IMG/VR virus record: IMGVR_UViG_3300033148_003280
Location: 1 to 53,722 of that record
Length of the DNA: 53,722 nucleotides
Reading direction: 5' to 3' (one strand)
DNA from: a virus
Taxonomy: Duplodnaviria; Caudoviricetes
Positions 3,330 to 39,653 of the stretch are shown piece after piece. The position numbers were made by a program, and so were the translations under genes. The first letter of the stretch is position 1; every line of letters begins with the position of its first letter. The notes under the pieces are model-generated. The model searched no databases and was not told the DNA's origin. It saw only the letters and a list, made by a program, of their open reading frames with translations.

Positions 3330-4401
3330 TGGTATCACCGTCCAATTCCTTATCAAATGCATCCTTGAGCTTGTCTGCGAATTCCACGAGTGCTTCAATC
3401 GGTATGCCCTTATCCGCGAAGTTCCGCACCTTGTTTGCCGCGGCGAATTCCTTATACAGAATTCCGAACGTATCCTTATCCATTGAATCCTTGTGATTGC
3501 GGATATCAGTCAGAATGCGTTTGCGATATTCTACCGGATCCATATCAGGACCATCAATGGGCGCATCTTCAAGGACATCGCCATTTTGGATATTACCGGG
3601 TTCAGGCTCCAGGCTCCCGGCGCGTTTATCAATCTCCCATGCACACCGCTCGCGGATATCAGGCTTATCCTTGATATTCGACATGATCCAATCGAGATAT
3701 TCCGGGGGGAGATCGCACCACTTCTGGTCTTTGTGCTTGCCGAATGGCATTGTATCATTGTCCGAATATCCCGCCTTCGTTGTCGTGGCTGCCTGTTGCT
3801 GATGTTCATTCTGCGGTGATGTGGGTTCGTGGGTGATATCGGCTATCCCGGCGTGACCGAATTCTTCAGCGGTGTATAGCCCCCCTGCGTCATCAGGAAA
3901 TGCACGACGCACTGCTTTTGCCAACGCGCATTTCTCAAGCATGTCAGCCGGGTATGCCGCCCATATTTCGCGCAATACCCCTTTGCTCTTATACTTCGCG
4001 GACTGCTTCCATGTGGCTATCGCCATCGTGGGATGATCGACGCCCTTCATATACACGCCAATTTTCGCGGCTCGCGGTGGGATATCCTGATCCCAGAAAT
4101 CAACCCACTTGTTATCATCACCCATGAATTGTACCGGGGTCGCCCCTGCATAATTCCCCGTTCTCGCGGCGATGGTAATCAGCCCATGGATACTTACTAC
4201 CGGGATGCGCTTCCCGCCGAATGGGATAAGGAATATCTGTCCGGCAAGCGGATTTAACTTTCGGCGTTTGGCCACGGCCATGAAGAAGTCAAACTCAATT
4301 TCGCTTGCCTCGCTTGCGTAAACATCCCTCATCATTTTCTTTTCTGCTGAAGAGAATTCGATCGTCGCAATTCCCTTTTCCTCTGTCTTCGTCTCGGTCA
4401 T
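3319..4401 (-). CDS. bet: Phage single-strand annealing recombinase (Bet/RecT family)
   Basis: LNPLAGQIFLIPF, SIHGLITIAARTGNYAG and W..YPADMLEKCALAKAVRRAFP..GGLYTAEE motifs, plus an internal MPFGKHK..LPPEYLDWI module. GGAGG RBS. Confidence 0.9.
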   Translation of the reverse strand: MTETKTEEKGIATIEFSSAEKKMMRDVYASEASEIEFDFFMAVAKRRKLNPLAGQIFLIPFGGKRIPVVSIHGLITIAARTGNYAGATPVQFMGDDNKWVDFWDQDIPPRAAKIGVYMKGVDHPTMAIATWKQSAKYKSKGVLREIWAAYPADMLEKCALAKAVRRAFPDDAGGLYTAEEFGHAGIADITHEPTSPQNEHQQQAATTTKAGYSDNDTMPFGKHKDQKWCDLPPEYLDWIMSNIKDKPDIRERCAWEIDKRAGSLEPEPGNIQNGDVLEDAPIDGPDMDPVEYRKRILTDIRNHKDSMDKDTFGILYKEFAAANKVRNFADKGIPIEALVEFADKLKDAFDKELDGDTNEN

Positions 4402-7799: not shown

Positions 7800-8450
7800 C
7801 TATGATGTAAATTTGTAATCCGGGTAATCTGCCCGGAAAGATTCTACTAATTGATTATACCACTCATTGAATTGACCGTAGTATCCGTGCATTGCCTGCC
7901 ATATGAACATCCGCATCAGGTCGCAGTTGACGTTATCACCGGGGCAGGATTTATGAGGATCGGGTACGCCGGGCACATACTTGGCTTCTCGATGTCCGAG
8001 CACTTGACGCACAGGCAGATTGAGCTTTCGGCAATATGTCGCGGCAAGTAACGCGACCGCCTTTTCGCGATCACCGCCAGGGTTCGGGCTTTCTCCAGGG
8101 TTCCTATTCTCATCAATGGTGTCGAAGTTCCCGATGACGCAGATACCGATACTATGTGAATTATCACCACGAACCTGAGCCGGCATTTTGTTGATGTTGC
8201 GGCCTAATTGAATAATTCCAGCGGGGAATCCCACATCGGGACGTATCGGCATATCGCCAATATTCACCGCGGCATTGTATCCGATTCCACTAAATCCCCG
8301 TTCGAGATGCCATTTGTGAATTTCTTCTGCATCACCCAGTCGGCTCCAGGAATGATGGATATAGATGCGGTCGATCCTGCGGGATTTCGGAATCGGCAAA
8401 TCATCCATTGATGCAAGGATCGGGAATTGTTGTGAATCAGTTGATCTCAT
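7800..8450 (-). CDS. N-acetylmuramoyl-L-alanine amidase endolysin (Amidase_2, T7-lysozyme-like)
   Basis: IYIHHS, IHKWHLERGFSGIGYN, NSHSIGICVIGNF, VLGHRE and KSCPG motifs. Confidence 0.9.
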   Translation of the reverse strand: MRSTDSQQFPILASMDDLPIPKSRRIDRIYIHHSWSRLGDAEEIHKWHLERGFSGIGYNAAVNIGDMPIRPDVGFPAGIIQLGRNINKMPAQVRGDNSHSIGICVIGNFDTIDENRNPGESPNPGGDREKAVALLAATYCRKLNLPVRQVLGHREAKYVPGVPDPHKSCPGDNVNCDLMRMFIWQAMHGYYGQFNEWYNQLVESFRADYPDYKFTS

Positions 8451-9226
8451 CGGTCTATATCCTCCTCTGGTTTTTTATGAACAGAATACTGCTCGGAATG
8501 CTGGATATAAGTCTTCAATCCTGTCGGCATCTCAAAGTACCGAGCATCGGAATCCTTAATGATTACCTCAAGCTCTACGGTCGTAGTATCACACACGAGC
8601 ACCTTATCCGAATGCTCTCTGAGAATCCTGATGCACATCTGATTATCCAATGCGCCGCGATTCATCCGGGTCGGATTATTCGGGGTTGGCATTGGCACCT
8701 GTCGCTTGCGGTGATTCAGCCCATCGCTCCATTTTTTCGGATATTCCTTGACCATCCTTTTCGCCACTTGCCGCAAGAACCCGGTTCTAAATACAGAGCA
8801 TCCAACAGGACAGTCGTGTTTGAAATATTTGTATGAGCCTTTTTTGGCCTTACGCATCTTATATGTCCATGCAACTTGCTTTGACGGATTCGCTTCCAAT
8901 GCCTGAACCATCCGTAGCGTATAGAACGGCGGGAACCTGTCATCCTCATCCCATATGAATGTGAAATCGGTTTTTGTTAATCTTAAATATTCCTCAAGTT
9001 TGAGCATCCATAGCGTCGGCCATACACCCTCGACATTTGCCTGGATAATATCGAACGGCATGTCGTGTCTTACGTGGGCGGGGAATTGCTTGTGTTTGTT
9101 CCGCTGATACAGAAGAAATAACTGCTTCAATTCGGGAGGGTATATTTGATCCTCAGTGTTTGCTATGGCGTGGGGAAGGTTCCGTGGAAGGAATGCCATT
9201 GTTAAATATCCGACCGTTGACTTCAT
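8447..9226 (-). CDS. GT-A (GT2-like) glycosyltransferase, paralog of 10260-10961
   Basis: YLTMA..AI....Q.YP N-terminus and WDEDDRF DxD-type motif. Confidence 0.65.
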   Translation of the reverse strand: MKSTVGYLTMAFLPRNLPHAIANTEDQIYPPELKQLFLLYQRNKHKQFPAHVRHDMPFDIIQANVEGVWPTLWMLKLEEYLRLTKTDFTFIWDEDDRFPPFYTLRMVQALEANPSKQVAWTYKMRKAKKGSYKYFKHDCPVGCSVFRTGFLRQVAKRMVKEYPKKWSDGLNHRKRQVPMPTPNNPTRMNRGALDNQMCIRILREHSDKVLVCDTTTVELEVIIKDSDARYFEMPTGLKTYIQHSEQYSVHKKPEEDIDR

Positions 9227-9522
9227 CTATTACTCCATCTAATTTCAAAAGATAGCCAACCAAAAATTATTTCGTCTTCATGTTTCCCAATATAGATTCT
9301 TAAATAATCATCCCATAGGTGATATAAAATATCTTTTAGCGACATGGTAAAATATTTCCATCCAAGGATTCTTAGCAGAGTTCCATTGTCCCAGCGCATT
9401 GTTATGCTCTTGCGATAATTAGATGCGTAGCACTTGTCTGGGTGAAATCTAATTACAAGTCCTATGTGCTTGATGTGCTCAATTTTCACGACAGGCTCTC
9501 CTCGATGCGGCTCGATAGCCAC
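9223..9522 (-). CDS. Hypothetical AT-rich protein
   Basis: ORF overlaps both neighbours and is visibly more AT-rich than they are. Confidence 0.5.
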   Translation of the reverse strand: MAIEPHRGEPVVKIEHIKHIGLVIRFHPDKCYASNYRKSITMRWDNGTLLRILGWKYFTMSLKDILYHLWDDYLRIYIGKHEDEIIFGWLSFEIRWSNR

Positions 9523-10267
9523 GACTTTTATTCAAATCATATGCTATCGCACTCACTCTCTCAAAACGTGCATCCTGCATTTCGGGCGTGACCAAGTGTT
9601 GCCAGCCGCGCCTGCCGATCTTATCGCTTTCCGGGAGCTGATCCATTACCTCAAGTTTTCGCTGCCGAATCTCCCAATACGGAGACCATACGAACCATGC
9701 GACATAGAGCAGTGGCGATTTTGCCTGCGGTCGCACCCTTGAATTGTGACGTCCGACATCGTAATGCCCATGCGCTCCACGGTGAAGTTGCCTTGAGTGA
9801 CGGCATCTCCAGAGTGGGTAATCCTTAGAGAATAGCCCGTGATGCTTCTGGGATAGCAGTGGGATATCAGGATCGAGTTTATCATCTGCGGTGTCAGGGG
9901 TATCAACCATCACAGCCGCATCAATCGGAAGGATGCATTTCATTATATGGGAGACGCTCTTAACGACACTCGTGAGATCCTGGGCAACGGCAAACTCGGT
10001 TATATTCAACGCCATTTTCCAGCCCTTACGTTTCCTCTCCTGCGTCATGACTTCTTTATCGGCTCCTGCACAAGAATAGAACGGTTGATAAACGGGCTTC
10101 ACGATATCCCATTCAGGAACCATCTCCCTGATGATATCCTCGGAGTTATCCTTACAGGGATAGAGTGTAATCACGCCATGATCGAATAGGCGCCGATGGT
10201 GTTCGAGCCAATACGGCAGGAGCGGTTCGCCGTCAAGAACGGTCGTGAATAGTGTAAATTTACTCAT
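9479..10267 (-). CDS. GT2-family glycosyltransferase-like protein (Glyco_tranf_2_4 type)
   Basis: TTVLDGEPLLPYWLEHHRRLFDHGVI....KDNSEDII, WKMALNITEF and YDVGRH. Start reassigned to MSKF. Confidence 0.7.
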   Translation of the reverse strand: MSKFTLFTTVLDGEPLLPYWLEHHRRLFDHGVITLYPCKDNSEDIIREMVPEWDIVKPVYQPFYSCAGADKEVMTQERKRKGWKMALNITEFAVAQDLTSVVKSVSHIMKCILPIDAAVMVDTPDTADDKLDPDIPLLSQKHHGLFSKDYPLWRCRHSRQLHRGAHGHYDVGRHNSRVRPQAKSPLLYVAWFVWSPYWEIRQRKLEVMDQLPESDKIGRRGWQHLVTPEMQDARFERVSAIAYDLNKSRGYRAASRRACREN

Positions 10268-10961
10268 CGATATTGACACCTTTACCTTTTCGGCGCGGGC
10301 CGCCATTGCCGCCTGATCTCATAAAGTAATATCGCATCCCGGCATGATCCATCATGCTTCGTGCATATCGTTTCCCGATAACCTTAATCAATGTGGGGTC
10401 AACCGTGAGGGTCATACCGTGTACAATGCGATGCCCATCGGGATGAATCGTTCGTACTTCAGGTACAACCGCTTTGAGTTCATTAGACATAAATGATAGC
10501 GTTCCATTTGAGCGCGGGTAAGTCCCCTCGACTATCTCTCCCTTTTTGACATAGTACGTTTTATTAGTCCATGTTCCGACTGCACCATATTCGACAATCG
10601 GCTCTACGATTTTGCGCGTATAATTCGTTTTGAATCTGTCATCCTCGTCCCACCATACCGCGATACTTTCCGGGTCGGTTAGTTCAATAAACGCTTCGAG
10701 CTTCGCAAGCCAGAGCGCGGGCCATTCTCCGGTAGCATAAGTATTCACGATGTTAATTAACGGACTGGTATTCTTAACGGTTCGATCCTGATGAATTAAC
10801 ACGATTGTCTTTTCGCCTGGGTAATCCTGCTCGATGGCATTGATGATAGCATTCTGCGTGTTGATCGCCTCGTAAGCCATTGTCAGGTATGTAACAGGCG
10901 GGAACTTATTTGGGATCGGTGAAGATTTTTGTTCCAACGTATCGTTTGCGTGCTCCGTCAT
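10260..10961 (-). CDS. GT-A (GT2-like) glycosyltransferase, paralog of 8447-9226
   Basis: VTYLTMA..EQDYP, G.WP.LW..KLE and WWDEDDRF. Confidence 0.65.
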   Translation of the reverse strand: MTEHANDTLEQKSSPIPNKFPPVTYLTMAYEAINTQNAIINAIEQDYPGEKTIVLIHQDRTVKNTSPLINIVNTYATGEWPALWLAKLEAFIELTDPESIAVWWDEDDRFKTNYTRKIVEPIVEYGAVGTWTNKTYYVKKGEIVEGTYPRSNGTLSFMSNELKAVVPEVRTIHPDGHRIVHGMTLTVDPTLIKVIGKRYARSMMDHAGMRYYFMRSGGNGGPRRKGKGVNIDE

Positions 10962-11493
10962 GCGCTATCACCCCCTCGCCTTCCGGGATGTGTTTTGATA
11001 GGCCCTGTAAATAACCGGCGGGGATTTTTTGAATATCAAGATCGCGCCCATTCTTATTAAGAAGATTTCCGAGTGCTACTTGATCGCCATGCTGCTTAGG
11101 GTTAGCGCGGAGATCACGAATCCACCATTTGATTATAACGCTCGCCTTAATAGAATTTCTGACGATCACTATTCCGCTACACCATGTTTTTCGGGTGCCG
11201 AAATAGAATGCACCGATATCGCAATCGAGTGTGTCAAAAAGAGCCGGATACTGCATGAACCAGGAGTCAACATCGACATGTATGATGTAGTCTATATCCT
11301 GATGTTCCAGCATCGCATTCAGAATAGACTGCGGCTTGTGATGCGTATTCGAATTCCACGATCCGCGAGAACGGATAACCTCAATATCAATCGGGATGCC
11401 GAATTTCTCACACGATGCCTGAAGCTTGTCGGCATCCTTTTGATACGGCCCTCCGGTGTGGAAGGCTTTAACTATCCAATTTTTATCACTCAT
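10906..11493 (-). CDS. Nucleotide-diphospho-sugar transferase-like GT-A protein
   Basis: L..SCEKFGI, W..NT..KP..IL, HVDVD (DxD), SG and DQ..L motifs. Confidence 0.7.
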   Translation of the reverse strand: MSDKNWIVKAFHTGGPYQKDADKLQASCEKFGIPIDIEVIRSRGSWNSNTHHKPQSILNAMLEHQDIDYIIHVDVDSWFMQYPALFDTLDCDIGAFYFGTRKTWCSGIVIVRNSIKASVIIKWWIRDLRANPKQHGDQVALGNLLNKNGRDLDIQKIPAGYLQGLSKHIPEGEGVIAHDGARKRYVGTKIFTDPK

Positions 11494-11506: not shown

Positions 11507-12163
11507 TTAAAACATCTTCATCTGATTCGCTTCCTTGCTGATGCGCTCGACGGCTATCTTAAAGTAGCCCTCGTCTATCTCCACCCCAATAAATTTGCGG
11601 CCCAACTTCAACGCCGCCACGCCCGTTGTGCCACTGCCCATGAACGGGTCGAGGATGATATCTCCGTTTATCATCTTCAAACACCATACGAATAAAGCGA
11701 CCGGCTTCTGTGTCGGATGCTGCGATGATTCCCCCGATTCCGATGCCCGATATGCCCCCGTCCATAGATGCCTGAAGGCGCGGGGCTTTGTGCCGCACTT
11801 GTGCCATGCAAACTCGCCTTCGCTATTCCTAACCTTCAACCCATTCCGTGTGACCTTATCCCAGAAATACCACGCGCCCCGATATGCCGGGATGTAGTTA
11901 CAATAGTTGTTACATCCCCACAATAGCACATCAGAAAAATCTAAAAATGGTCGGGGGTCGAATGGTTTATTGTCGTTGGCTATCGCATTAAATCCTTGAC
12001 TGCCTCGTTGACGCCCTTCCATGGCGACAAAATCTATCCCATATGGTGGGTCAGTCACCACGGCATCCACCTTATCAAGCAACGGTAGCACGTCCATGCA
12101 GTCCGCATGATATAGCACAGCATCGCCTATTTCTACTTTATCGATGACTGCGGATTCGCTCAT
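11507..12163 (-). CDS. DNA N6-adenine/N4-cytosine methyltransferase (beta class)
   Basis: VTDPPYG, HPTQKP and ILDPFMGSGTTGVAA. Confidence 0.92.
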   Translation of the reverse strand: MSESAVIDKVEIGDAVLYHADCMDVLPLLDKVDAVVTDPPYGIDFVAMEGRQRGSQGFNAIANDNKPFDPRPFLDFSDVLLWGCNNYCNYIPAYRGAWYFWDKVTRNGLKVRNSEGEFAWHKCGTKPRAFRHLWTGAYRASESGESSQHPTQKPVALFVWCLKMINGDIILDPFMGSGTTGVAALKLGRKFIGVEIDEGYFKIAVERISKEANQMKMF

Positions 12164-12687
12164 TTTATCCCCACGAATTGAACATCCTGATTACATATGC
12201 CGAGCATATACCAATCGAACATTCCGTATTTGAAATGCCGCATGATATCATCCGGCGTGATGTTCTTGTAATGATCCGCCCATTTCCCTCCGAGCTTCAC
12301 CGTACCGGAAGCCCATGGGGTGCGATTGGTTGTTCCGTGTTCCGCGAACCTATAGCTGGCAGATATGAACATTAATCCGCCCGGCATCAATAGGTCATAC
12401 ATGCGCGGCAACGTCTCATCAAAATACATGTCGTGTTCCAGGGAATTCACGGAGCATACGACATCAAACATGACGCCCTTGAAGTCGATCTCGTGAAATA
12501 TGCCGATCTTGTCAACGTCCTTACCGGCAACAACATCAACCCCGGTGTAGTCGCAATTCTCAAACAGGGGCCGGAGAGAACCGTTGACATTGAGCGACCC
12601 CATTTCAAGGACTGACTTGAACTCGAAGAACCGGGGCATTGCTATTTTCAATCCCGCGCACCACTTCTGTTGTACTTTATGACTCAT
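12160..12687 (-). CDS. Class I SAM-dependent methyltransferase (small-molecule/glycan type)
   Basis: VLEMGSLNVNG, YTGVD...GKDVD, FDVV.S...LEHD and L.PGG. Confidence 0.8.
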   Translation of the reverse strand: MSHKVQQKWCAGLKIAMPRFFEFKSVLEMGSLNVNGSLRPLFENCDYTGVDVVAGKDVDKIGIFHEIDFKGVMFDVVCSVNSLEHDMYFDETLPRMYDLLMPGGLMFISASYRFAEHGTTNRTPWASGTVKLGGKWADHYKNITPDDIMRHFKYGMFDWYMLGICNQDVQFVGIK

Positions 12688-13277
12688 GCGATTCTCCTCA
12701 TAAATTCATCGATCTGTATCAGGTTAAGCCATGACGTTCTATTCGCATCGAATTCATCCCATGTGGGATCCGCCGGAATATCAAGTAAGGCTTGGCATCC
12801 ATGCCTGATAATACCACATCCCCAATCGATATCGACAACGAACATCTCAAGCTCCGGATCGGTACGCCTGAGTTTCAGATACGACTTGTAAGCCGTCCCA
12901 GACCATAAGGCCTGCCCTTCCTTGCGCTCCGGCGCGGCGTGGGCGGCAATTTTGGGATTGCAATCGTGCATCACGATAGTGCCGTTTGCCGCGAGACACT
13001 TCAGGGAATTTTGGATGTCACGATCAACCTGCTCCTCATGGTGATCGCCGTCGATGAAGATAATATCAAACAGGGCAGAAGGCGCTGTCTCAAAATATTC
13101 ATCCGAGCTAATGGCCTTGACGTTTGGGTTGATAAGCAACGGATTTATATCTATCCCAAATTTATTATCGCACTTGACGCGCGTAAAACATACCCCGTCT
13201 CTCGCGCCGATCTCTAAGTATCTTTTATGCCCATGCTTTTCTATCAGCCTATTAATTATTTCCCATCGGTACTTCAT
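12684..13277 (-). CDS. Class I SAM-dependent O-methyltransferase (Methyltransf_24-like)
   Basis: YLEIG..DG, FDIIFIDGDH and L..NGTIVMHD. Confidence 0.85.
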   Translation of the reverse strand: MKYRWEIINRLIEKHGHKRYLEIGARDGVCFTRVKCDNKFGIDINPLLINPNVKAISSDEYFETAPSALFDIIFIDGDHHEEQVDRDIQNSLKCLAANGTIVMHDCNPKIAAHAAPERKEGQALWSGTAYKSYLKLRRTDPELEMFVVDIDWGCGIIRHGCQALLDIPADPTWDEFDANRTSWLNLIQIDEFMRRIA

Positions 13278-14530
13278 CTCGTAAATATCACCAATCTTCT
13301 ATTATTCCATTTCTTATCGATGAAGATTTCCTTCATGTTCGTGAACCCGGTACATTCCATGACGAGCCTATTCATTTTATCCTTGTTGTTAAGCCCCGCT
13401 TTTATCACCGCACGCCCGGCCATGGCATCGCCGTGGGACGTCTCAAAAAACAGGGTGTCAGTGATCCTGCCTATTCTTTTAAGCGAATTCTTGGCGCTCT
13501 CTAAGCCTTCCTCTTTAAGTATCCACATGAAGGTCGAGAGGTAGCAGACGAAATCATATTCCGGGGGCTTTTCCAAGGCACTGGTAACTTTATCATTGAT
13601 AAATATCGTGCCGTCAATACCATAATAATTTTTGAGCGCATCGGCGACACGCACGGCCTGCGGATCACGCTCGAATCCGACCATTGCGGCCCCGAATCTA
13701 TTCAGCCAGAACGACATCCCGCCGACGGAACTGCCGAGGTCAAGCCCGGTCTTATTAGTAAAATCATACACGCCCTTCATTGCTTCTGCTCGTTTGCCCG
13801 TGTGTTTTCTATGAGATGTCTGCTCAATATTAAACGGTACATCATGATACATCCATCCCGGCCTGGTAGTAGAGCCCGGAACAAGTTTAGTCCCGAGGGC
13901 GGCCATTGCCCGACGAACTTCTTTCCACTCCTCTTGTTTATCAAGAAGATAGTTGATGGCGCGGCGAAGCATTACCTCATCGCCGTCTCTCTGGATAATT
14001 TTCAAAAGTCTCTTATTCGGCCAGGGTTCCGAGAAAGGCTCTCCGATAACGGTGGACATTGAGAAATCAATCAGCGTGATCCGCCCATCCTTAACCATTA
14101 TGTTCCGTGGGATAATATCGTTGTGTCGAATCCCGGCTTTTTTAAGTGTCCGTATGATGGACCCGATTTGCGCGTCCCAATCATCCGGCATATTCTCTGC
14201 TGAAAGGTGAACTCCAGCATCCGTCATCGTAACGCTGAATTCATCGTGACAGATATAGTGCGGAGCATGAACGCCATCCATTGCCTTTAGAGTGCGTACT
14301 TCGCTATCAATCATATAAGGATATTTGATAAGCCACGGTTCCTTAAAGCATTTCTGATGATTACCGTCTTCAAGCACGTTTACTATTGCGGTATGTCCTT
14401 GCCCGATAGGATATGGGCCTAAAAACATCCATCGATCAGTCGGACCACCAAGGATGTCATCACTGGGAATGTACGGAGGGTTTTTCCTTCGCGCCCTCCT
14501 CGCAATTCTTCTTTCCCTTGCGGTAGTCAC
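13274..14530 (-). CDS. Kinase-methyltransferase fusion
   Basis: N-terminal protein-kinase-like fold (GQGHTAIV, HNDIIPRNIMV, IDFS) and C-terminal class I MTase (LDLGSSVGG, GFERD). GAGGAGG RBS with GTG start. Confidence 0.8.
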   Translation of the reverse strand: MTTARERRIARRARRKNPPYIPSDDILGGPTDRWMFLGPYPIGQGHTAIVNVLEDGNHQKCFKEPWLIKYPYMIDSEVRTLKAMDGVHAPHYICHDEFSVTMTDAGVHLSAENMPDDWDAQIGSIIRTLKKAGIRHNDIIPRNIMVKDGRITLIDFSMSTVIGEPFSEPWPNKRLLKIIQRDGDEVMLRRAINYLLDKQEEWKEVRRAMAALGTKLVPGSTTRPGWMYHDVPFNIEQTSHRKHTGKRAEAMKGVYDFTNKTGLDLGSSVGGMSFWLNRFGAAMVGFERDPQAVRVADALKNYYGIDGTIFINDKVTSALEKPPEYDFVCYLSTFMWILKEEGLESAKNSLKRIGRITDTLFFETSHGDAMAGRAVIKAGLNNKDKMNRLVMECTGFTNMKEIFIDKKWNNRRLVIFTR

Positions 14531-14645
14531 TCGACTAATACCCTCCTCTGCTTAATCAAGGCAGGGGCGGCTCACGGAAGCCGCCCCCTCGTTAAAAATC
14601 GGAAAAGAACGCTGACTCGGCGACATTGCTATTGCACAATTAATA

Positions 14646-14918
14646 TTACCCATTCGATTTCCCATTCGTCTTATCGGATCTCCAGCCGCACTGGCAGATA
14701 AATGGCTTATCCACATCTTCGGATACTGCCTGTCCTCCGCAAACCGGGCATTTCTGGATACGCCGATTTGCAGATGCGAACTTACCATTAAACCCCTGTG
14801 GGTCTCTTGCCATTTCACGCACGAGATCAGCATTCAATTCTGCTTCTAAGCGATTGCGTTTTGATTGCTCTACAAATATATCAAGAATGATTTCCCTGTA
14901 TCCATCAATCAATGGCAT
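14646..14918 (-). CDS. Small Zn-ribbon protein
   Basis: CPVC...PFICQCGW; start at MPLIDG. Confidence 0.6.
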   Translation of the reverse strand: MPLIDGYREIILDIFVEQSKRNRLEAELNADLVREMARDPQGFNGKFASANRRIQKCPVCGGQAVSEDVDKPFICQCGWRSDKTNGKSNG

Positions 14919-15225
14919 CACCATCCTTATCAAATCGCAACCTGCAATCACGGTTGAGTTCCGAAACGACCTTACTTAATTCCTGGGTTGTGTCCCTGTC
15001 GCTCTGCATCATTGCCGCGTAATTACTAACGAACTCTATCGTTTTATCGAGTTGTTCTTCTTGCTGTTTCTGCATTTTGGATATGAACTGGTTTTGAGAG
15101 CGTTGCATCATGAAAATAACCACACCCAATATAACGACTACAATTGCGAGAGCGCCCAGGATGGGAGCGGCTGCGGTCAAGTTATTGATTGCGTTTGCAC
15201 CTTCAGTTATTGCTTCATTTGACAT
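14905..15225 (-). CDS. Holin-like single-TM protein
   Basis: One N-terminal TM (ILGALAIVVVILGVVIFMM) followed by a coiled coil; located after the tail genes. Confidence 0.55.
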   Translation of the reverse strand: MSNEAITEGANAINNLTAAAPILGALAIVVVILGVVIFMMQRSQNQFISKMQKQQEEQLDKTIEFVSNYAAMMQSDRDTTQELSKVVSELNRDCRLRFDKDGDAID

Positions 15226-15237
15226 TTGAACCTCGTA

Positions 15238-15402
15238 TTACGGGCGAGACTTTTTCCATCCGCATTTACACACAAATGGATCGCCCGGTCGGTTTGATAC
15301 TACAACGGTATTGCATTTCTCACATCGCACCGTTTTAATCGCACCGCCGCTTGGCTTCCTATTCTCGACTTTGAGTTTATCAACTTTCCTATGTTCAACC
15401 AT
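15238..15402 (-). CDS. 54-aa Zn-ribbon protein (absent from the ORF track)
   Basis: TAATG coupling with the upstream gene; MVEHRK...CEKC...PFVCKCGWKKSRP*. Confidence 0.65.
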   Translation of the reverse strand: MVEHRKVDKLKVENRKPSGGAIKTVRCEKCNTVVVSNRPGDPFVCKCGWKKSRP

Positions 15403-16223
15403 TAGATACCCTCCACATAAGTAGGATTTCTGAGTTTCGTTTCTGAAACGGTCACCACTTCAATGCCTGAATCAATCATGCCTTTTATCAGCGCATCGAC
15501 TTGCTTGACGCGATACCAGGTTTTATTTTTTCTGGCAATATCCCTGTGCTTTGTTTTATTCCAGTACATGTTACCGTACATGTCGATACCGCACATAATG
15601 ATACGCCTCTTTTTGGGAGGCTCCGGTTTTATCATCAACTTCTCGGCAATTTGAAGGAATGAACCAAATACCGTCCCGCCTGCATGTATGAGAGGGGAGT
15701 CGACGTTGATGTGTGCCGGATCAAGCAATGGCCTTGATACATCGAATACTAATCTAAACCAAGGATAATATTTGGCAATGCTTTTCCGCTCGACAATCGG
15801 CATGGGGAATTCACCGCGATTGAATTCCTTCAACCCGAATTTACGACCGCTCTTTTCCATCCTAAATGCCATATCGTTGAAATATTTCTCGTTTCTTAAT
15901 AGCGGGTCTTGAGCCCCAAATACGCTTGCCTTGACAGGCGCATCGCAGGCTCCATTCAAGGCAACTACAAATTTACCTTCCAGCTTATCGTAATGCGGAA
16001 CGCCGTTCGGCCCTGATCCGAGCAAAACTATTTCCTCCGGCCACCTCATCCCGCTCGTCAAAACGTTGACGAAATTACCGGCTTCGACATGTAGCATTTG
16101 CCCGGATGCGACGAAACGCTCCGCGTTTTTCGGGTTAAAGCGAACGACTCTACCGGCCTTATATACCCTTTGCCGATACATCATAGGCTTTAAGATTTTA
16201 TAAGTTTCTGCTCTATTGCCCAT
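15402..16223 (-). CDS. Sialyltransferase/Maf (MptE-like fold) glycosyltransferase-like protein
   Basis: IVLLGSGP, VVALN, D, GGTV....LQIA and IIMCGIDM motifs typical of the CstII/Maf-like fold. Confidence 0.6.
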   Translation of the reverse strand: MGNRAETYKILKPMMYRQRVYKAGRVVRFNPKNAERFVASGQMLHVEAGNFVNVLTSGMRWPEEIVLLGSGPNGVPHYDKLEGKFVVALNGACDAPVKASVFGAQDPLLRNEKYFNDMAFRMEKSGRKFGLKEFNRGEFPMPIVERKSIAKYYPWFRLVFDVSRPLLDPAHINVDSPLIHAGGTVFGSFLQIAEKLMIKPEPPKKRRIIMCGIDMYGNMYWNKTKHRDIARKNKTWYRVKQVDALIKGMIDSGIEVVTVSETKLRNPTYVEGI

Positions 16224-18753: not shown

Positions 18754-19646
18754 TAGATAATTCTCCACCCTGCCCCTGTCGAATATATATGTATAGATGT
18801 ATCAGGTACAAGTGCTTGCGTCAACTCGCCTTCAATCGTTTCGGCACCGTTACCATCAACGGTTACGATTCCTACTGAGTCATTATCGATATATAAATCG
18901 TATCCCGTGTTGCCGACAGCGGTATAGAGCGTAACCGTTATTCCCCCGGCGGTGCATCGAATTATTTTATCAGCAGTAGTCGCATCCGTATTGATCGCGG
19001 TAACTCTGACACCGAACGGGCATTCGCAAGCGACTAACGTGGGCGATCCATACCAGACCATCACGGTTGTATCAACTTCAGAATCGTTATAAATATTTAC
19101 ATTCAAATCTCCGGCATCGATCGTCCAGTTATAAGTTATCCGTCCCGCAACACGCGCCATGCTTTGTAATACCGTAAATGCCGGACCCCCGGTTACGTTC
19201 TGTGCATTTACTACTACCATGAAATCGAGAGGGTCGTCGGTGACAGCGCCGCAGTTTATTATCGCCTGTTCTCCAACATCAACCGACGTGGGGCCGGACG
19301 ATGAAAGGGCCGTTGTATCTGCCCAGTCAGGAGTATCCGCATCGACCATCGTTAGGACTTGTCCCTCGGTTCCTTTTGCCAGCCTTGACCATAACGGCCC
19401 GGCTTGAGCGGTGATTATATCACCAAGCACCGCCGCCGCTGGATCAGTATCTTCATGTGTGGTTGATAAAATATCATGCAGGATACTATCAGGATCAGGT
19501 GTGGATGGGGGCCTGCCAATGTAACTATTGGCGTTGAATGTTGTTTCCTTTTTCTCATTGGCATCGATTAAATCAAGTGCAATGCGCGCCGTAGTTTTCG
19601 CCGGGGTCTTCATCTTGTTTCGATATGGCGCTTTATTCCGGGGCAT
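18753..19646 (-). CDS. Tail fibre-like protein
   Basis: GDII.A.....RLAKGTEGQVLT fibre motif; C-terminal TVTL..A...G....I...ETIEG...W.I domain. Confidence 0.7.
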   Translation of the reverse strand: MPRNKAPYRNKMKTPAKTTARIALDLIDANEKKETTFNANSYIGRPPSTPDPDSILHDILSTTHEDTDPAAAVLGDIITAQAGPLWSRLAKGTEGQVLTMVDADTPDWADTTALSSSGPTSVDVGEQAIINCGAVTDDPLDFMVVVNAQNVTGGPAFTVLQSMARVAGRITYNWTIDAGDLNVNIYNDSEVDTTVMVWYGSPTLVACECPFGVRVTAINTDATTADKIIRCTAGGITVTLYTAVGNTGYDLYIDNDSVGIVTVDGNGAETIEGELTQALVPDTSIHIYSTGAGWRII

Positions 19647-22237
19647 TATCTAAGCACCCCCGCACCGAATTCAGTCCCGGATATTCTCACTTGCGAATCG
19701 GTTATCTCGATCGCCTGTACCATGAATTGAAGTTCTTCGGGCCCACCCTCACGATAGTCATCCTCGACCGCTACAGTATCGAAAACCATAATCCGGGGAT
19801 CAAAATGCGAGGTTAAGGAAATGGTTCTGTAGAGCCTGATGTATTCCTGCAATAGAATGTATGCGCGGTCGAGTGCCTGAAATCCCGTGAACGTGATTCC
19901 TTCGTCATCCATTTTGGGCTGGTGCGTTACGTTAGTTAACTTCTTTACCAATTCGGGATAATAATCGAGAATGAAGTCGTGCATCACTCCGCTGCCACCA
20001 ATGAAGTGGCCACCATTACCCTCCACGAAAGCCGCCTTACGTCCCGGCCCGGTCGCACCCTGAATTCCTGGATATCTATCGACAAGCACGGCGGTCGTAT
20101 TATTTATCACATCCCACACTTCTGCCCAGCTTGAGAGATCGCCGGACACCGCAACCATATCGCCGGGGTCAAGCTCGGCATTGAATAAACTACCTACACC
20201 GTTTAATTCCCACGGCGGCCCCCCGGCAGTAAATGTTATATTTCCCGTAAGATTAATTACATCCGGCGGTGTCACATCCTGGATACAGGCCGTCACACAT
20301 ATCTTCTGGCTGCCGAATATCATTATTTCCCTGAATCCAATCGTGAGTTCCTTGCCACTTATCACCCAATTAAAAGGTCGGCAGTATAGGCGTATGTATC
20401 GAGCCGTCACAAGCCCCTGTACATCAAAGTCCGTCTGTGCATCCGCATCAAGTTCCACCTTATAAGTTTCAGGAGAGCAGATATTAAAATTGACCCCATC
20501 AACAGAATGATATATCGAAACGGCTTGCTTAGAATCGCCCTTCGTATACCGTTGCGGAATCGTATAAAGCGATATTTGTGACAGGTCGTAGACGGCCTGG
20601 AGATCAATTGTCACGAATTGATAGTATGTATTCCAGGCGGTTTCCTTGTCCGGGATAGTGGGATAGTTATAATGGCAAGCATATGCCTGATAAAATGAAG
20701 TATCATTCAAGCCATAAACAGCCGCCGGATTACAGAGATAATTTACCCCCCATTGAACACCGCAACCGGCTACCGATGGGCCGATAGACCACGGGCCGAA
20801 TCCATCAGGCGGAACCACGATCTCAATATCTGCCGCGATAGTTACCCCGGCCTTGGTTATTAAATTCTCCGACCTCGCGACCGTGCCTGTCGTCACAACT
20901 GCCGATGCGAAATCTTCACTTGTGGCCCGAATCGGGAGCTTTATAATCGGCCCAAGCTCGATAACATTTGAGTAATCTATTGCTACCTGATCGCCGCGAA
21001 CCTGATCGGTCATCGGGTCGTACCAGAGTTTATATCCTTTCGAGTCGGCATAATTCTCCTGCAGCCGCCGATATAGTTCTGCTACCGTCCCTTCGCACAA
21101 ATTCCATCTAATTACTGATAAGCTGATGCCCGCTGCCCTCAAGGTTGACTTGTAGGACGGCCCAGCACCACCTACAGGCCCCTCATACTTATAGAGAAGG
21201 GTAAGCGTCACATTATCAGTTACATAGGCTACAATGCCGTAAGATTCAGCAGGCGCCCCCTGTAAATGTATCCTGTCACCGTGGCTTAATTCTGTGGTGA
21301 AAAGTGTGCCGACGCCGGTGACCACCTTATTGCCAGCCGTAAAAGTAAGGGTTCCTGTTAGGTCTGTTGACAGATCAGTAAGCGGGGATGAATCGACATC
21401 AAATTCAAGACCGAGATCGGGACATGCAGCGGGATAAACCATCATTGCCTCGATAACATCGGCGAGTTCAAGCGTACCCTCGACATAAACTGATACTTCC
21501 ACGACCCGGAACTTATCCGGTGCGAGCTGCGGGTTGTGGAATCGAATCAGGCCATAAGGTGTATCGACAATATATTCGGACGCGAGTATGGGTTCCCATG
21601 GCCCGACACCGCCGGTCTGCTTTTCAATCTCAAATACCATCGGCACCCATGCGCGGCGTGCGGCTCCTACAACTGCCGCATTGTCATCAAAATATGCCCA
21701 ATCATATGGTGGGACATTATCGCGCTTTATCTCAAACGTATTCAAATCACCAGGGTCATCCCAATTATCAGCATGGTCAAGATTGACATTGTCATATGGC
21801 CCTTCAATACGCGCTGACATATCTATCTCGGCAAGCGCCGTCTGCATCTTATCAAGTGGGTCGCGGGCTTCAACCGATACTGATAAATCGCTACGTGCCG
21901 GGGTCTTCATCGTTCCCCTGAATATATATTCCTCTTCCAGTCCGGTCGGTGCATGGATGCTGCATTTCAATCGACAAGCGGAAAATAGTTGAACAGGATT
22001 ACCGCTGTCGAATTCATCCAAGTAAGTATAATCATCTATTGGTATACGGAAGGTGCCGGTGCCGATGACCGGGTTTCCATCGATGACGCTTAGTCCCCAG
22101 CCACCTTCCATCAGCGGAATTTCAACCCACGGGTCATCGTCCGCAGTCATGTATCCGTTGCGAGCCTCAAACGTGTATGAGCGGGATATTGGTTGCCCTG
22201 ATGTTATCAGTGCATCTATGTCTGCACTCCACGCCAT
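19646..22237 (-). CDS. Large tail tip/hub protein with discoidin (F5/8 type C)-like domain
   Basis: Follows the Dit-like gene; VTIDL...S.DG..F...ARYIRL...EI.IFG discoidin pattern; two G.GTLF..EL..GD inserts. Confidence 0.65.
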   Translation of the reverse strand: MAWSADIDALITSGQPISRSYTFEARNGYMTADDDPWVEIPLMEGGWGLSVIDGNPVIGTGTFRIPIDDYTYLDEFDSGNPVQLFSACRLKCSIHAPTGLEEEYIFRGTMKTPARSDLSVSVEARDPLDKMQTALAEIDMSARIEGPYDNVNLDHADNWDDPGDLNTFEIKRDNVPPYDWAYFDDNAAVVGAARRAWVPMVFEIEKQTGGVGPWEPILASEYIVDTPYGLIRFHNPQLAPDKFRVVEVSVYVEGTLELADVIEAMMVYPAACPDLGLEFDVDSSPLTDLSTDLTGTLTFTAGNKVVTGVGTLFTTELSHGDRIHLQGAPAESYGIVAYVTDNVTLTLLYKYEGPVGGAGPSYKSTLRAAGISLSVIRWNLCEGTVAELYRRLQENYADSKGYKLWYDPMTDQVRGDQVAIDYSNVIELGPIIKLPIRATSEDFASAVVTTGTVARSENLITKAGVTIAADIEIVVPPDGFGPWSIGPSVAGCGVQWGVNYLCNPAAVYGLNDTSFYQAYACHYNYPTIPDKETAWNTYYQFVTIDLQAVYDLSQISLYTIPQRYTKGDSKQAVSIYHSVDGVNFNICSPETYKVELDADAQTDFDVQGLVTARYIRLYCRPFNWVISGKELTIGFREIMIFGSQKICVTACIQDVTPPDVINLTGNITFTAGGPPWELNGVGSLFNAELDPGDMVAVSGDLSSWAEVWDVINNTTAVLVDRYPGIQGATGPGRKAAFVEGNGGHFIGGSGVMHDFILDYYPELVKKLTNVTHQPKMDDEGITFTGFQALDRAYILLQEYIRLYRTISLTSHFDPRIMVFDTVAVEDDYREGGPEELQFMVQAIEITDSQVRISGTEFGAGVLR

Positions 22238-22784: not shown

Positions 22785-25100
22785 TTAGGCATCGAAATGC
22801 TCTCCCCTAAGATATCCCTGGGCCGTTCGACCATGCGGATCGACATCATATGCACCGCTCCGTCCTGAATACACGAAGCTAACCGGTAATGTTGCACCGA
22901 ACTGGAAGAACTGCTCCCAGTTTGAAATATGCGCGCTTACGAATACCGGAGAACTTTCATCTTCGCCACGGCCACCGCCGCCGAATAAGCCACCGGCTAA
23001 ACTGAATAAGCCACTCACGATGCCGCCGCCGAGCGCACCCATTATAGAACCGAATAATCCGCCGCCACCAATGGATTCCTTTATCATGCCGGATATATCC
23101 GTGCTGATCGCATTGCCTATCATGGAAAATATATTTGAAAGGGCGCTCGCTATATCGCCTGAGACTATTGATTTACCGAGCATCCTGGCTGCGCCAAGCA
23201 GTGTTTTCTCAATATCTGTGAATGCCTTTTCGATTGTCTTTTCGGTTTTGTCGTTCTCCTTTAGATATCTTCGTCTTTCGGTAGCCAAATCACCGAACGG
23301 GGACGTACCGCCTCGCTCGCCACCAATTTTATCACTCATCGCTTTTGATAAGCGCCATGATGCACCACCTGTCCCTGCTTCCATCTTGGCAAATGCTGAT
23401 TGCACTATTTCGGGCATGCTCGAAAAAGCATCACGCATTGCATCTTCAACTCTTTCCATTACCCGGTTAATCCCTTTTTCCATCCTTGCAAATTCAAGCA
23501 ATATGCCCGTAACCATCTCGGGAATAATGGAATGGCCGATCAATTTATCTTTCAGCCATTCAAACGGCTTCACAATGCCGCGCGCTAATTCCCCGGCCTT
23601 GTTTTTTATCTTTTCAACTTGCAGGGCAAAATACGAAACTATGGAATCCCAGAGTTCAACCCAATCTTCATATATGGCTTCCCATATTCCGCTTATTGCT
23701 ATACCGAGTTCTATGACATAGCGCTCTATTTGCAACCATGCGCCGCGCCAACTTTCCGTGAATTCACTCCAATGAGTTATAATCCATGTCAAGCCGCCTA
23801 TGATGGCAAGGATTCCGGCTCCAACCGCGCCGATCACCCCCACGATTGCTGCGACCGCCGTTAAGATACTACTGAGTACAACAAGGAAGGGTCCGGCCAG
23901 TGCTATTATCGCAGTCCACTTTAAAATATTCTGCTGCGTTGCAGAATCTAAGTCAGTGAATTGTTTTACAAGCTCAATGATCTTATCAAGCAAGGGCATA
24001 ATTGCTTCATCGAGAAGTTCCGTTAATGCTGGAGTCAGCGTATCTCCTATGCGGATCGCAATCGTTGTGAGCTTTGCCTTAAATACATCCCATTGGAATC
24101 CGACAGCATTCAATCCTTTTGTCTGTTCATCGAGTGCTTCCATGGTTGTTCCAGATGCATCTTTCATTTCCCTCAATTTTTGGTTAAATGTTTCCGCCTG
24201 CGGACCTAATAAAGTAAGAACCGCAAGCACAGCTTCTTTTCTGCCAAACAATTCAGCCAATGCATCATTTGATCCATCCGTAGTGTCCACAAGCGCTTGA
24301 AGCGCACCTACGAAGCCGCGTTCGGCAAACAATGTTTCTATTGTTACGTCTTCTAATTTATGAAGAGCGTTTTTCATTGCAGCGGATTTTTTTATGACTC
24401 CGGTTAATGCCGATGCAAACTGAGTAGCCACTTCCGTTGTGTTACCTGTTACCCCTGTGAGTGTAGCCATGACGGCCATAGTTTCTTCGATACCAATATT
24501 CAATGCACCTGTCAATGGCACGACTTGGCCCAGCGATGCAGCTAATTCCGGGAAGGTTGTTTGACCCAATCGAACCGTCAAAAGCGAAAGGTCTGAAACC
24601 TTTTGCATCGCCTCAAATGAAGTATCGCCATATGCCTTTGTAACCCCTGATGTTAATTTGATTGCTTCTTTTAATGTGGCCTGTCCGGCCTTAGCCATTT
24701 GCGCCATCAGCGTCATGTTCTTCATCGTATCTGTTGAATCACCAAATGCTGATATCATTTCATACAATCCGTCGGTTAGCATTCCGGGTTGTTCACCGAT
24801 AGAAACGGCAAGGTCTAAGACAGCATCTTTCAATTCAAGCATCCGTTCGGTATTCCCAGGCATCAGAGATGCGACATTTGCCATCCCCTTATTGAATTTC
24901 ATGGAGGCATTTATCGCTGCGGTTCCTATTGCAACTATTGGAAGCGTGAGGTTTTTCGTGAGGCTCTTTCCAACCTTCCCGACCCGCTTGCCATACTCCT
25001 CCATCTTTTTAGATGCCTTTTCGACATTCTGAGTATAGCCCCTGAGGTCGGCAAGGAACTTGACCGAAACATCATATGTATTTCCAAGGCCTAATACCAC
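22785..25100 (-). CDS. Tail tape measure protein (TP901 family)
   Basis: GKSLTKNLTLPIVAIG, F..GMANV.., LYEMISA and G.TTFPELA core, with W-spaced repeats and IGHSIIPEMV. Confidence 0.92.
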   Translation of the reverse strand: MVLGLGNTYDVSVKFLADLRGYTQNVEKASKKMEEYGKRVGKVGKSLTKNLTLPIVAIGTAAINASMKFNKGMANVASLMPGNTERMLELKDAVLDLAVSIGEQPGMLTDGLYEMISAFGDSTDTMKNMTLMAQMAKAGQATLKEAIKLTSGVTKAYGDTSFEAMQKVSDLSLLTVRLGQTTFPELAASLGQVVPLTGALNIGIEETMAVMATLTGVTGNTTEVATQFASALTGVIKKSAAMKNALHKLEDVTIETLFAERGFVGALQALVDTTDGSNDALAELFGRKEAVLAVLTLLGPQAETFNQKLREMKDASGTTMEALDEQTKGLNAVGFQWDVFKAKLTTIAIRIGDTLTPALTELLDEAIMPLLDKIIELVKQFTDLDSATQQNILKWTAIIALAGPFLVVLSSILTAVAAIVGVIGAVGAGILAIIGGLTWIITHWSEFTESWRGAWLQIERYVIELGIAISGIWEAIYEDWVELWDSIVSYFALQVEKIKNKAGELARGIVKPFEWLKDKLIGHSIIPEMVTGILLEFARMEKGINRVMERVEDAMRDAFSSMPEIVQSAFAKMEAGTGGASWRLSKAMSDKIGGERGGTSPFGDLATERRRYLKENDKTEKTIEKAFTDIEKTLLGAARMLGKSIVSGDIASALSNIFSMIGNAISTDISGMIKESIGGGGLFGSIMGALGGGIVSGLFSLAGGLFGGGGRGEDESSPVFVSAHISNWEQFFQFGATLPVSFVYSGRSGAYDVDPHGRTAQGYLRGEHFDA

Positions 25101-30310: not shown

Positions 30311-31318
30311 TTAAGTCGGATCAGAAGTGATGTTCTTAATGAGGGCTCCAGCCCTTCCATTAGACAACTTCACTTCATAATCTGTGCGAACCTCGTACCA
30401 TACTCCCTCAACGAAGATGTCAGGCTTTTCGCTGACGGTCATGATGTCTCTGTCGCTGATAACAGCGTTGTTGAAAGCGAACTGCACAATCATCGCAGCT
30501 GTCTTCAGGCTCGGACTCGGATCAACATAACCAACCCACGCCCAGTCATCTCCGGCATCTGCAGAAATCTCTTCCCACATGAATTTGAGGCTCGAAACCT
30601 CAAGCCGTGGATTCTCGTCGTAGATCGCATCGGCTTGGATGACGTTCAGACCAAAGAGCGGATTCGGGAATTTGCCGGTCTGAAGATAGGTGAGACCGTA
30701 CATGGTTTTGAGGATGTCGATCAAAACCGCATTATCCACCAAGGCATCACCGGCTTTCGGTGAAAGGATCAGTGTGTTGGCGGATCTCCCAGAGTGGAGC
30801 TTGACCGCGCGGATAGCCGCCTTGATGTCGTGGTACGGGTTTGCATCATCGGCATCCCAGGGGGCCTCCGCATCAAACCAGTGAGGATCATCTGCGTCGA
30901 CATAGTAAGACGCCTCGGTGAGCAGAATTTCCGCAACCTTGGCTTCGCGTTCGAGTGCGACATTTTCGACAAGAAGCTCGATGCCCTTGCGATATTCCAC
31001 AACTGACTGCGCGGACATCTTTGCTTCACGATCAGTCATGAGATGCCGCTTACCGAACGGCTCGGTCGAGTACGTCGCTTTATCCAGCCTGAAGTTCAGT
31101 TCGGTAGGAACGCCACCATGCGGAATCTTCGTGTCGTGATGGATGTTCTTTCCTTCAATGGGAAGAATGACATGGTAATCGCCGGGGTTCTTATTGACCG
31201 GAATTACCGGGGCGACGCGGTTGGCGATAAGGCCATCGTTGTCGTAGAAAAGGTATACGCCGTAGTTACTTAACTCGGCATTGATAGCTGCCTCTGCAGG
31301 CATTGGGTGTCCAGACAT
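30311..31318 (-). CDS. Major capsid protein
   Basis: 335 aa after the decoration gene; IANRVAPVIPV, RE.KVA..L, W.....NP..DI and G...NTLILS pattern of lambda E/Mu-like capsids. Confidence 0.85.
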   Translation of the reverse strand: MSGHPMPAEAAINAELSNYGVYLFYDNDGLIANRVAPVIPVNKNPGDYHVILPIEGKNIHHDTKIPHGGVPTELNFRLDKATYSTEPFGKRHLMTDREAKMSAQSVVEYRKGIELLVENVALEREAKVAEILLTEASYYVDADDPHWFDAEAPWDADDANPYHDIKAAIRAVKLHSGRSANTLILSPKAGDALVDNAVLIDILKTMYGLTYLQTGKFPNPLFGLNVIQADAIYDENPRLEVSSLKFMWEEISADAGDDWAWVGYVDPSPSLKTAAMIVQFAFNNAVISDRDIMTVSEKPDIFVEGVWYEVRTDYEVKLSNGRAGALIKNITSDPT

Positions 31319-39390: not shown

Positions 39391-39394
39391 GTGT

Positions 39395-39547
39395 TTACCT
39401 ACCGCGTCCGCTGCCCCTTCCGCCGCCATCGCCGTAACCGGGCCCCTTCCCGCTACCGCAAGGCTGATCATTCCCATTCCCTCTCCCGCCGCCATCAATC
39501 CCCTTGCCCTTGCCCCTGCCGTCCTCTGGGTGACTTCCTGTTGCCAT
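39395..39547 (-). CDS. 50-aa glycine-rich peptide (absent from the ORF track)
   Basis: AGGAG SD; MATGSHPEDGRGKGKGIDGGGRGNGNDQPCGSGKGPGYGDGGGRGSGRGR*. Confidence 0.7.
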   Translation of the reverse strand: MATGSHPEDGRGKGKGIDGGGRGNGNDQPCGSGKGPGYGDGGGRGSGRGR

Positions 39548-39653
39548 TTCAATCTCCTATGGTTTAGTTTTTTACTTTGATCTCCATTTCATTCCGGGGC
39601 CGAGCAGGTGGCCCCACCCGGCCCCGCTTGCACATTCAGACAGGAGGTTACGG

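Follow-up and report, generated by a model that had tools for sequence, protein, structure and literature searches.

We identify in the genome of a tailed phage a kinase–methyltransferase (kinase–MTase) that is, with reasonable probability, soluble, bifunctional and of the WbdD type, its modules standing in reversed order. It would cap with methyl-phosphate a glycan made by the surrounding gene cassette, with a virion protein as the likely acceptor. The phage is IMG/VR record IMGVR_UViG_3300033148_003280, whose full 53,722 bp we call the window; it represents a single tailed phage judged 97% complete with every gene on the minus strand, on which all genes and gene parts given below lie. The kinase–MTase open reading frame (ORF) occupies 13274..14530 (stop codon included) and encodes 418 amino acids from a GTG start, with a strong Shine–Dalgarno sequence, GGAGGG (14541..14546), 10 nt 5′ of it. 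WbdD of Escherichia coli O9a and Klebsiella pneumoniae O3 (PDB 4azs, 4azw, 4ax8 and 4uw0), described in PMC3482155, is the closest known system and carries an MTase followed by a kinase; the phage protein instead has its kinase at residues 31–212 and its MTase at residues 215–418. According to PMC11231755, only a few bacterial O-antigens are known to receive a methyl-phosphate cap, which halts chain growth and licenses export, and all known terminators carry a coiled-coil ruler. The same two-module architecture now appears in phages, without ruler or membrane anchor, in either order and within late-operon glycan cassettes.

Domain layout and relationship to WbdD

The ORF is a genuine conserved gene, matched by 20 proteins at 67–80% identity and recurring in 13 metagenome loci. 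Residues H136, N137, D138, N143, D155, E77, D264, G266 and G270 are invariant in 18 aligned homologues, and K60 is conserved in at least 90% of them. A polybasic tail at residues 1–17 (14480..14530) precedes a minimal protein-kinase-fold domain at residues ~31–212 (13895..14440) and a WbdD-type class I S-adenosylmethionine (SAM) MTase module at residues ~215–418 (13277..13888). An earlier reading of this DNA made without database searches (the sequence-only reading) had proposed an N-terminal kinase joined to a C-terminal class I MTase, and profiles and predicted fold settle that arrangement. The motifs it named are present (G43-Q-G-H-T-A48, H136-N-D-I-I-P-R-N143, I154-D-F156 and L263-D-L-G-S-S-V-G-G271), as is the Arg-rich tail it described (8 Arg or Lys among the first 20 residues), and its view of the protein as soluble agrees with a maximum 19-residue Kyte–Doolittle hydropathy of 0.95.

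We used an AlphaFold2 model built from an alignment of 43 diverse relatives (predicted local distance difference test score (pLDDT) 91.3, predicted template modelling score (pTM) 0.85), which supersedes an earlier model from 18 close homologues that was poor in the kinase half (pLDDT 61.7). The model contains a short N-terminal helix at residues 4–15, a kinase N-lobe, C helix and catalytic core, and two helices reaching to about residue 212, and then a Rossmann-fold MTase with a conserved beta-hairpin lead-in ahead of it.

Sequence profiles identify the MTase half as a specific homologue of the WbdD MTase. This module holds a 'GSS..G..YH..PF..HRK' lead-in, motif I (D264-G266-G270), W336 and R411. 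Single-sequence scans against Pfam, PHROG and NCBIfam gave kinase and MTase matches that all fell below cut-offs, including a Methyltransf_11 match at residues 263–355. Searched against PDB sequences, a close-family profile returned WbdD as the best match (E 1.9e-13) with both modules matched in swapped order, residues 277–379 to the WbdD MTase and residues 141–188 to the WbdD kinase catalytic loop, DFG motif and then 'WP' motif. A profile of the MTase alone (27 sequences) matched WbdD at E 4e-23 and 85 bits, with the next family at E 1e-15 and 61 bits. WbdD was also the best match by fold, and named methylphosphate-capping enzymes are among the best fold neighbours; the fold-match lists (VIA, Foldseek) are filled by MTase matches, and the fold evidence thus concerns the MTase half. 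Also among the top fold matches of this half are MePCE and BCDIN3D, Bin3-type RNA 5′-phosphate MTases (PDB 6dcb, 5una and 6l8u) that differ from the phage enzyme in having no kinase partner and an RNA substrate; the sequence similarity that the MTase-only profile detects to MePCE spans motif I (E 1e-8, 47 residues). BFVD returned generic viral MTases and small viral kinases as its sole matches.

The kinase half retains a Gly loop (residues 43–48), K60, E77, HND...N (136–143) and DFS (155–157). Both the catalytic-loop Asp and a DFG-type metal site are therefore present, and H136-N-D138...N143 and D155-F-S are invariant in the 18 homologues. Sub-threshold matches to APH, Pkinase, Kdo and RIO1 kinases fall around residues 114–167. 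Pfam PF00069 scored 20.5 bits against a cut-off of 31.7 and matched residues 117–163 only, PF06293 (lipopolysaccharide (LPS) Kdo/WaaP kinases) scored 20.3 bits against 21.3, and KdkA NF002475 scored 26 bits against 142; single-sequence scans also matched Bud32 at E 1.4e-8 and KdkA at E 3.6e-6. Small viral 'Ser/Thr kinases' of 160–207 amino acids in BFVD align to this half. As modelled, the domain spans ~180 residues and appears to have neither an activation segment nor a full C-lobe, and it is ~70 residues shorter than the WbdD kinase. A kinase-only profile is led by TTK and other protein kinases (E 1e-6), which match the catalytic loop and DFG alone; the WbdD kinase is itself nearest to eukaryotic protein kinases (PMC3482155). 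The resemblance to WbdD with swapped domain order that the sequence-only reading had proposed is upheld by the best PDB match in sequence profile, MTase-only profile and fold, with the tie running through the MTase and the kinase-only profile favouring ordinary protein kinases.

In WbdD, D351 is the catalytic Asp, W355 stacks on Y230, and R203, Y16, H132 and H133 are each essential for methylation (PMC3482155). D351 aligns to D138, the catalytic-loop residue D350 to N137 and W355 to R142, and R203 aligns to R411, the invariant Arg of the family. Y16 possibly corresponds to the invariant Y228, judged from spacing alone, the alignments beginning at WbdD residue 31. On alignment, then, the SAM site appears conserved relative to WbdD, as does a portion of the acceptor site, in a pocket that is not identical.

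WbdD is about 700 amino acids long. The phage protein, at 418 amino acids, lacks its coiled-coil ruler, membrane helix and polymerase-docking region; the sole extra element in the model is the 12-residue N-terminal helix, and no hydrophobic segment was found. The sequence-only reading had suggested that the enzyme could both cap and length-limit a phage-made glycan. Capping is plausible, but length limitation has no structural basis in a protein with no coiled coil and no membrane or docking region, and the absence of a ruler suggests a terminal cap or decoration rather than a length gauge.

Family architectures and glycan cassettes

An exhaustive search of 1.84 billion representatives returned 783 proteins at E ≤ 1e-3, 196 at 1e-10 and 26 at 1e-30, revealing a large unnamed family of metagenomic and viral proteins. 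We compared architectures in 168 of them (the best 150 listed and 20 close proteins, two of which are in both sets). Kinase–MTase order is found in 36, including 18 of the close family, and the MTase–kinase order of WbdD in 58, mostly at 355–436 amino acids; a further 68 are MTase only and 6 are kinase only. When 19 relatives with the WbdD order are combined into a profile, it matches WbdD at E 1.4e-26, in two chains as a single collinear stretch that continues through the kinase DFG.

Domain order in this family has changed repeatedly. On a FastTree tree of the MTase domain (132 rows, omitting kinase-only proteins, any row with under 150 of the 218 MTase positions covered, and 14 of the 19 proteins of the close family; 58 of 129 forks unresolved), the kinase–MTase label requires a minimum of 10 changes, and well-supported branches force no fewer than 6 of these; the window lineage forms a clade with full support and a long stem. 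These changes imply that order, fusion and fission have been reshuffled many times, which fits two coupled steps that are independent of a fixed order. A metagenomic protein of 531 amino acids, P0041, has a kinase–MTase–kinase arrangement with HRD..N and IDF[S/G] kept in both kinases, and is a plausible intermediate for a domain-order swap via duplication. With this form included, the family offers a clean natural case of domain-order permutation.

Fusions connect the family directly to glycosyltransferases (GTs). Among 22 long relatives scanned, four carry fused GT domains: P0148 joins kinase–MTase to a GT2, a further MTase, a GT2-like domain and a GT9; P0032 and P0157 each combine GT2, MTase and kinase; and P0128 joins a GT1-like domain to an MTase. 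In P0014, a single sequence on a 2.6-kb contig, the kinase–MTase is fused in frame to a homologue of the window ORF at 15402–16223 (27% identity, E 5e-14), the cassette gene discussed next. Separately, an intein (Hint and LAGLIDADG) splits the MTase half of a kinase–MTase relative of 767 amino acids, P0033.

As the sequence-only reading had noted, the kinase–MTase gene heads a run of MTase and GT genes; one more putative GT lies 5′ of it, past three small ORFs. This conserved upstream partner (15402..16223) encodes an MptE-like/DUF115 protein, a putative ulosonic-acid-type GT whose Atlas neighbours are MptE-like/DUF115 proteins and WaaZ-type Kdo transferases at TM scores of 0.6–0.66, which we treat as leads only. 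The three small conserved ORFs (14646..15402) between it and the kinase–MTase comprise a Zn-ribbon ORF (15238–15402), a single-transmembrane ORF (14905–15225) and a second Zn-ribbon ORF (14646–14951); the two Zn-ribbon ORFs are paralogous by tblastn cross-hits, and the transmembrane ORF has a weak spanin-like match. Downstream, a Methyltransf_24-type MTase (12684..13277) overlaps the kinase–MTase by 4 nt and is followed by a Methyltransf_23-type SAM MTase (12160..12687; phrog_32762). Next come a probable GT-A enzyme (10906..11493) with weak Nucleotid_trans/GT34 matches and a DVD motif, syntenic in relatives; a GT2-like protein (10260..10961; Atlas features 0.97); a Glyco_tranf_2_4 family GT (9479..10306), with PF13704 found in 22 of 22 relatives at a best E of 5e-9; and, as the last gene before the endolysin, a GT2-like paralogue of 10260–10961 (8447..9226; 31–37% identity in tblastn cross-hits). 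A PDB profile search with ORF 9479–10306 gave a single weak match (E 0.019) to GmaR, which we take to be the cytoplasmic flagellin O-GlcNAc transferase, and single-sequence PDB searches of three neighbouring genes gave no match. From the kinase–MTase down to the endolysin, adjoining genes abut or overlap by a few bases, indicating one late operon. Pfam and PHROG scans of the window ORFs found no initiating phosphoglycosyl transferase, flippase, ABC transporter or sugar-nucleotide enzyme.

The cassette is shared by close relatives, seen in 13 metagenome loci of at most 8 kb each that are near kin and not independent evidence. The common order is MptE-like, Zn-ribbon, transmembrane, Zn-ribbon, kinase–MTase, Methyltransf_24, Methyltransf_23 and four GT-like genes; the Methyltransf_24 gene comes next after the homologue in all 10 loci that reach beyond it, and GT genes follow in the five that are long enough (L001, L006, L007, L010 and L012). 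An N6/N4 DNA methyltransferase also lies inside the run (11507–12163). It is absent by tblastn from all 13 related loci, five of which span its position, and is thus an insertion in this phage. The ~250 nt between two GT genes at 9227–9478, overlapped by a 99-amino-acid ORF (9223–9522), are probably another window-specific insertion: the same two genes stand 2 nt apart in L010, and ORF 9223–9522 matches no related locus.

More distant viruses carry the gene in a comparable setting. Eleven viral contigs hold WbdD-order relatives with 24–39% identity to the A4 query, and we annotated ORFs within ~6.5 kb of the match on eight of these (L017–L024); L025 repeats the L024 pattern, and the weak partial matches L026 and L027 were left out. 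Three of the loci (L019, L020 and L023) are alike, so the eight may represent five or six independent lineages. The sequence-only reading had made co-occurrence of homologues with GTs a test of its proposal, and in all eight loci the gene stands among 3–6 GTs (GT2, GT1/4, GT8 and GT9). Epimerase/dehydratases occur in L017, L021 and L024, a UDP-glucose dehydrogenase in L022, a UDP-GlcNAc 2-epimerase in L024 and a cytidylyltransferase in L019, along with Methyltransf_24/CmcI-type sugar O-methyltransferases in L019, L020 and L023. GT2–MTase fusions lie directly 5′ of the gene in L019, L020, L021 and L023, and L024 has adjacent separate MTase and kinase genes. The gene is directly preceded by a major capsid gene in L023; in L021 the capsid gene is likewise upstream, a few genes away, and adaptor and structural genes lie downstream. 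L018 has an amidase downstream, the same as in the window. These phage markers place the distant cassettes in late modules. In L024 (13204–15294), a further intein lies inside a Polysacc_synt_2 dehydratase of the glycan cluster.

Other searches returned little. A tblastn search of 50,697 GenBank phages gave zero matches to the kinase–MTase, scans with the single proteins P0023 and P0024, distant relatives of the same domain order, brought up no viral locus, and cluster look-ups for the family gave no informative names. The pattern scans of IMG/VR and genome contigs used the narrow A4 alignment; the IMG/VR scan with the close-family alignment found nothing, and the genome-contig scan (two A4 peptide patterns) found only a phage fragment from a Phycisphaerae metagenome-assembled genome and one weak archaeal match. 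The 8-kb contig binned to that Phycisphaerae genome (L015, identical to L008) has tail-fibre genes and the same cassette, marking it as a phage fragment, and its binning is at most a faint host hint.

Proposed activity and its alternatives

Homology, intact motifs, gene context and the predicted fold describe the enzyme; its sugar substrate, methyl-phosphate product and virion acceptor are what we infer. In the activity we propose, a glycan would be built in the cytoplasm late in infection by the MptE-like transferase, the four GT-A-type glycosyltransferases and the two further methyltransferases, from a cassette transcribed with the late genes between tail fibres and endolysin. The kinase domain would phosphorylate a hydroxyl of the terminal sugar at the expense of ATP, and the WbdD-type MTase would then methylate the phosphate to complete a methyl-phosphate cap. 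The acceptor would be a glycan on a virion protein assembled in the cytoplasm, which we favour because no export or initiation genes were found and because the cassettes are in late operons and adjacent to capsid genes.

Host lipid-linked glycans are a serious rival acceptor, although one we rate as rather unlikely. The same chemistry would then act at the cytoplasmic face on envelope glycans or lipid-linked precursors (O-antigen, capsule or teichoic-acid-like), capping or remodelling them in the infected cell, perhaps as a barrier to superinfection or as a help to release. WbdD itself works on undecaprenol-linked polymannose at the membrane (PMC3482155, PMC11231755), and the polybasic tail of the phage enzyme could bind anionic lipids, although it has almost no hydrophobic face. 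The WaaZ-type Kdo transferases named among the Atlas neighbours of the MptE-like protein act on LPS cores, and repressor-like and LexA-like genes in the window make lysogenic conversion possible; however, window scans found no integrase, and the cassette lies on the structural strand in a late operon that ends at the endolysin, away from the lysogeny genes. The cassettes that follow a capsid gene in L021 and L023 also speak for a virion acceptor, and five putative transferases with three MTases suggest de novo building of a glycan.

Several findings weigh against the activity we propose for this uncultured virus. The kinase half appears from its profiles to have no specific sequence tie to the WbdD kinase: WbdD is absent among the 60 matches listed for the kinase-only profile, its kinase stretch scores 15 bits (i-E 0.08) in the close-family PDB search, and the WbdD-order profile aligns with WbdD at 95.5 bits over the MTase alone versus 96.5 bits collinearly. 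WbdD H132 and H133 align to M335 and W336, a pair conserved without exception in the 18 close homologues, and the acceptor pocket is therefore a different one. Relatives of the MTase that stand alone are common, and the GT assignments of 10906–11493 and 8447–9226 look weak by sequence. The WbdD of serotype O8, moreover, methylates a sugar hydroxyl directly (PMC3482155), so that phosphate methylation is not guaranteed here. An alternative is an enzyme with independent domains, in which the MTase would O-methylate a hydroxyl of a sugar, like the kinase-less O8 WbdD, the kinase would phosphorylate elsewhere and no methyl-phosphate would be made; the two unconserved histidines, the 68 of 168 relatives that have an MTase without a detectable kinase and the frequent reshuffling on the MTase tree are all in its favour. 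We consider it improbable, since the same modules recur as fusions of either order, as a pair of separate neighbouring genes and as kinase–MTase–kinase, which argues for coupled steps. The named methylphosphate-capping enzymes among the best fold neighbours argue likewise, and the pTM of the model indicates a fixed two-domain body.

A role in host takeover, as a protein kinase or as an enzyme that phosphorylates and methyl-caps RNA 5′ ends in the manner of MePCE and BCDIN3D, seems very unlikely. By sequence, the kinase half is matched best by protein kinases, but the same is true of WbdD's own eukaryotic-protein-kinase-like domain, and the ~180-residue phage domain is predicted to lack the activation segment and full C-lobe. 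MePCE and BCDIN3D rank high when the MTase half is compared by fold, and the N-terminal tail, which presumably resembles an arginine-rich motif, might bind RNA; by sequence, however, WbdD is far closer (E 4e-23) than MePCE, with its motif I match. Polynucleotide kinases are P-loop enzymes, and both the glycan-biosynthesis context in eight of eight distant loci and the existence of GT fusions speak for a sugar substrate. Least probable of all, to the point of being nearly negligible, is hypermodification of DNA, in which the kinase, MTases and GTs would decorate modified bases. Phage GTs often glycosylate DNA, and the run contains an N6/N4 DNA methyltransferase, with three more DNA methyltransferases elsewhere in the genome. 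Window scans found no base-hydroxymethylase or similar gene, however, and the distant clusters hold sugar-nucleotide enzymes, heptosyltransferase-type GT9 and rhamnosyl-O-methyltransferase-like genes. We rejected the DNA-modification reading, the methyltransferase at 11507–12163 being an insertion unique to this window.

Related systems, extended copies and genome context

The phage enzyme lies in a late operon without the ABC transporter that accompanies WbdD. A second comparison is the N-terminal terminator of Klebsiella pneumoniae O7 ORF6, which pairs a WbdD-like MTase with a different kinase and nevertheless produces a terminal methyl-phosphate (PMC11231755). GT2 domains are fused to its modules, as they are in the relatives P0148, P0032 and P0157, but its kinase is aminoglycoside-kinase-like where the phage kinase is protein-kinase-like, and it is a bacterial, ABC-transporter-dependent protein with MTase-then-kinase order, a coiled coil and a carbohydrate-binding module (PMC11231755). 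Nearer in form are the ruler-less MTase–kinase proteins of uncultured viruses in L017–L024, which are homologous in both halves at 30–39% identity, measure ~360–430 amino acids, have no coiled coil and lie inside phage GT clusters; they keep the WbdD order, some as two genes, and the phage lineage described here forms a separate clade.

Viruses with their own glycan machinery offer a further parallel. The virion glycosylation cassettes of mycobacteriophages and the machinery of chloroviruses and mimiviruses are viral sets of GTs and MTases that modify virion proteins in the cytoplasm and need no export machinery of the host. We know of no kinase or methyl-phosphate cap reported for these systems, and the tblastn search of GenBank phages showed no sequence relationship to the kinase–MTase. 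We found no viral kinase–MTase of this kind in the full-text literature, subscription-only papers lying outside its coverage. The nearest report concerns an Asgard-archaeal virus with a 'SAM-dependent methyltransferase (WbdD)' that might terminate mannan, an annotation-level remark (bioRxiv 10.1101/2021.07.29.454249).

Some relatives carry additional sequence ahead of the kinase. In L003 (670–1014) and L011 (1295–1627), and similarly in P0005, the kinase–MTase has an in-frame N-terminal extension that starts with a module of ~45 amino acids, which shares 48% identity with the N-terminal end of the MptE-like protein, and continues as a ~60-residue helix rich in Lys, Glu and Leu. Tandem repeats of 15/30 nt encode this helix, and after it come the polybasic stretch and the kinase. 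The extension could be a shared docking module with a variable spacer. This layout mirrors the MTase–kinase–coiled coil–docking arrangement of WbdD, and the kinase adjoins the spacer in both. A mirror-image phage terminator, in which repeat number would set the length of a methyl-phosphate-capped virion glycan and the short-tailed copy would be a minimal, ruler-less form capping a short, defined oligosaccharide, is a speculative idea that we regard as doubtful.

If the proposed function is correct, phages make their own phosphorylated, methyl-capped glycans. This would be a new chemical feature of virion or infected-cell surfaces, with consequences for adsorption, for immune recognition of therapeutic phages and for environmental stability. 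It would also provide a small soluble enzyme of 418 amino acids for the study and engineering of glycan phosphate capping without the membrane context of WbdD.

The remainder of the genome has a conventional tailed-phage content, including a terminase (35924–37453), portal (33579–35924), major capsid protein (30311–31318), tape measure (22785–25100), tail fibre (19646–22237), amidase endolysin (7800–8450) and RecT (3319–4401). The three DNA methyltransferases outside the cassette lie at 38209–39552 (with a ParB-like N-terminus), 50956–52461 and 52451–53518. Within the 115-nt gap 5′ of the kinase–MTase start is a perfect 8-bp GC-only hairpin at 14564–14587 (GGGGCGGC, 8-nt loop, GCCGCCCC), with a T-rich stretch before it and no T-run after it; the terminator scan did not call this element, which could be a processing or attenuation site. 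The tail-fibre protein (19646–22237) has an F5/8 type C (discoidin, galactose-binding-like) domain at residues 533–620, which suggests a carbohydrate receptor.

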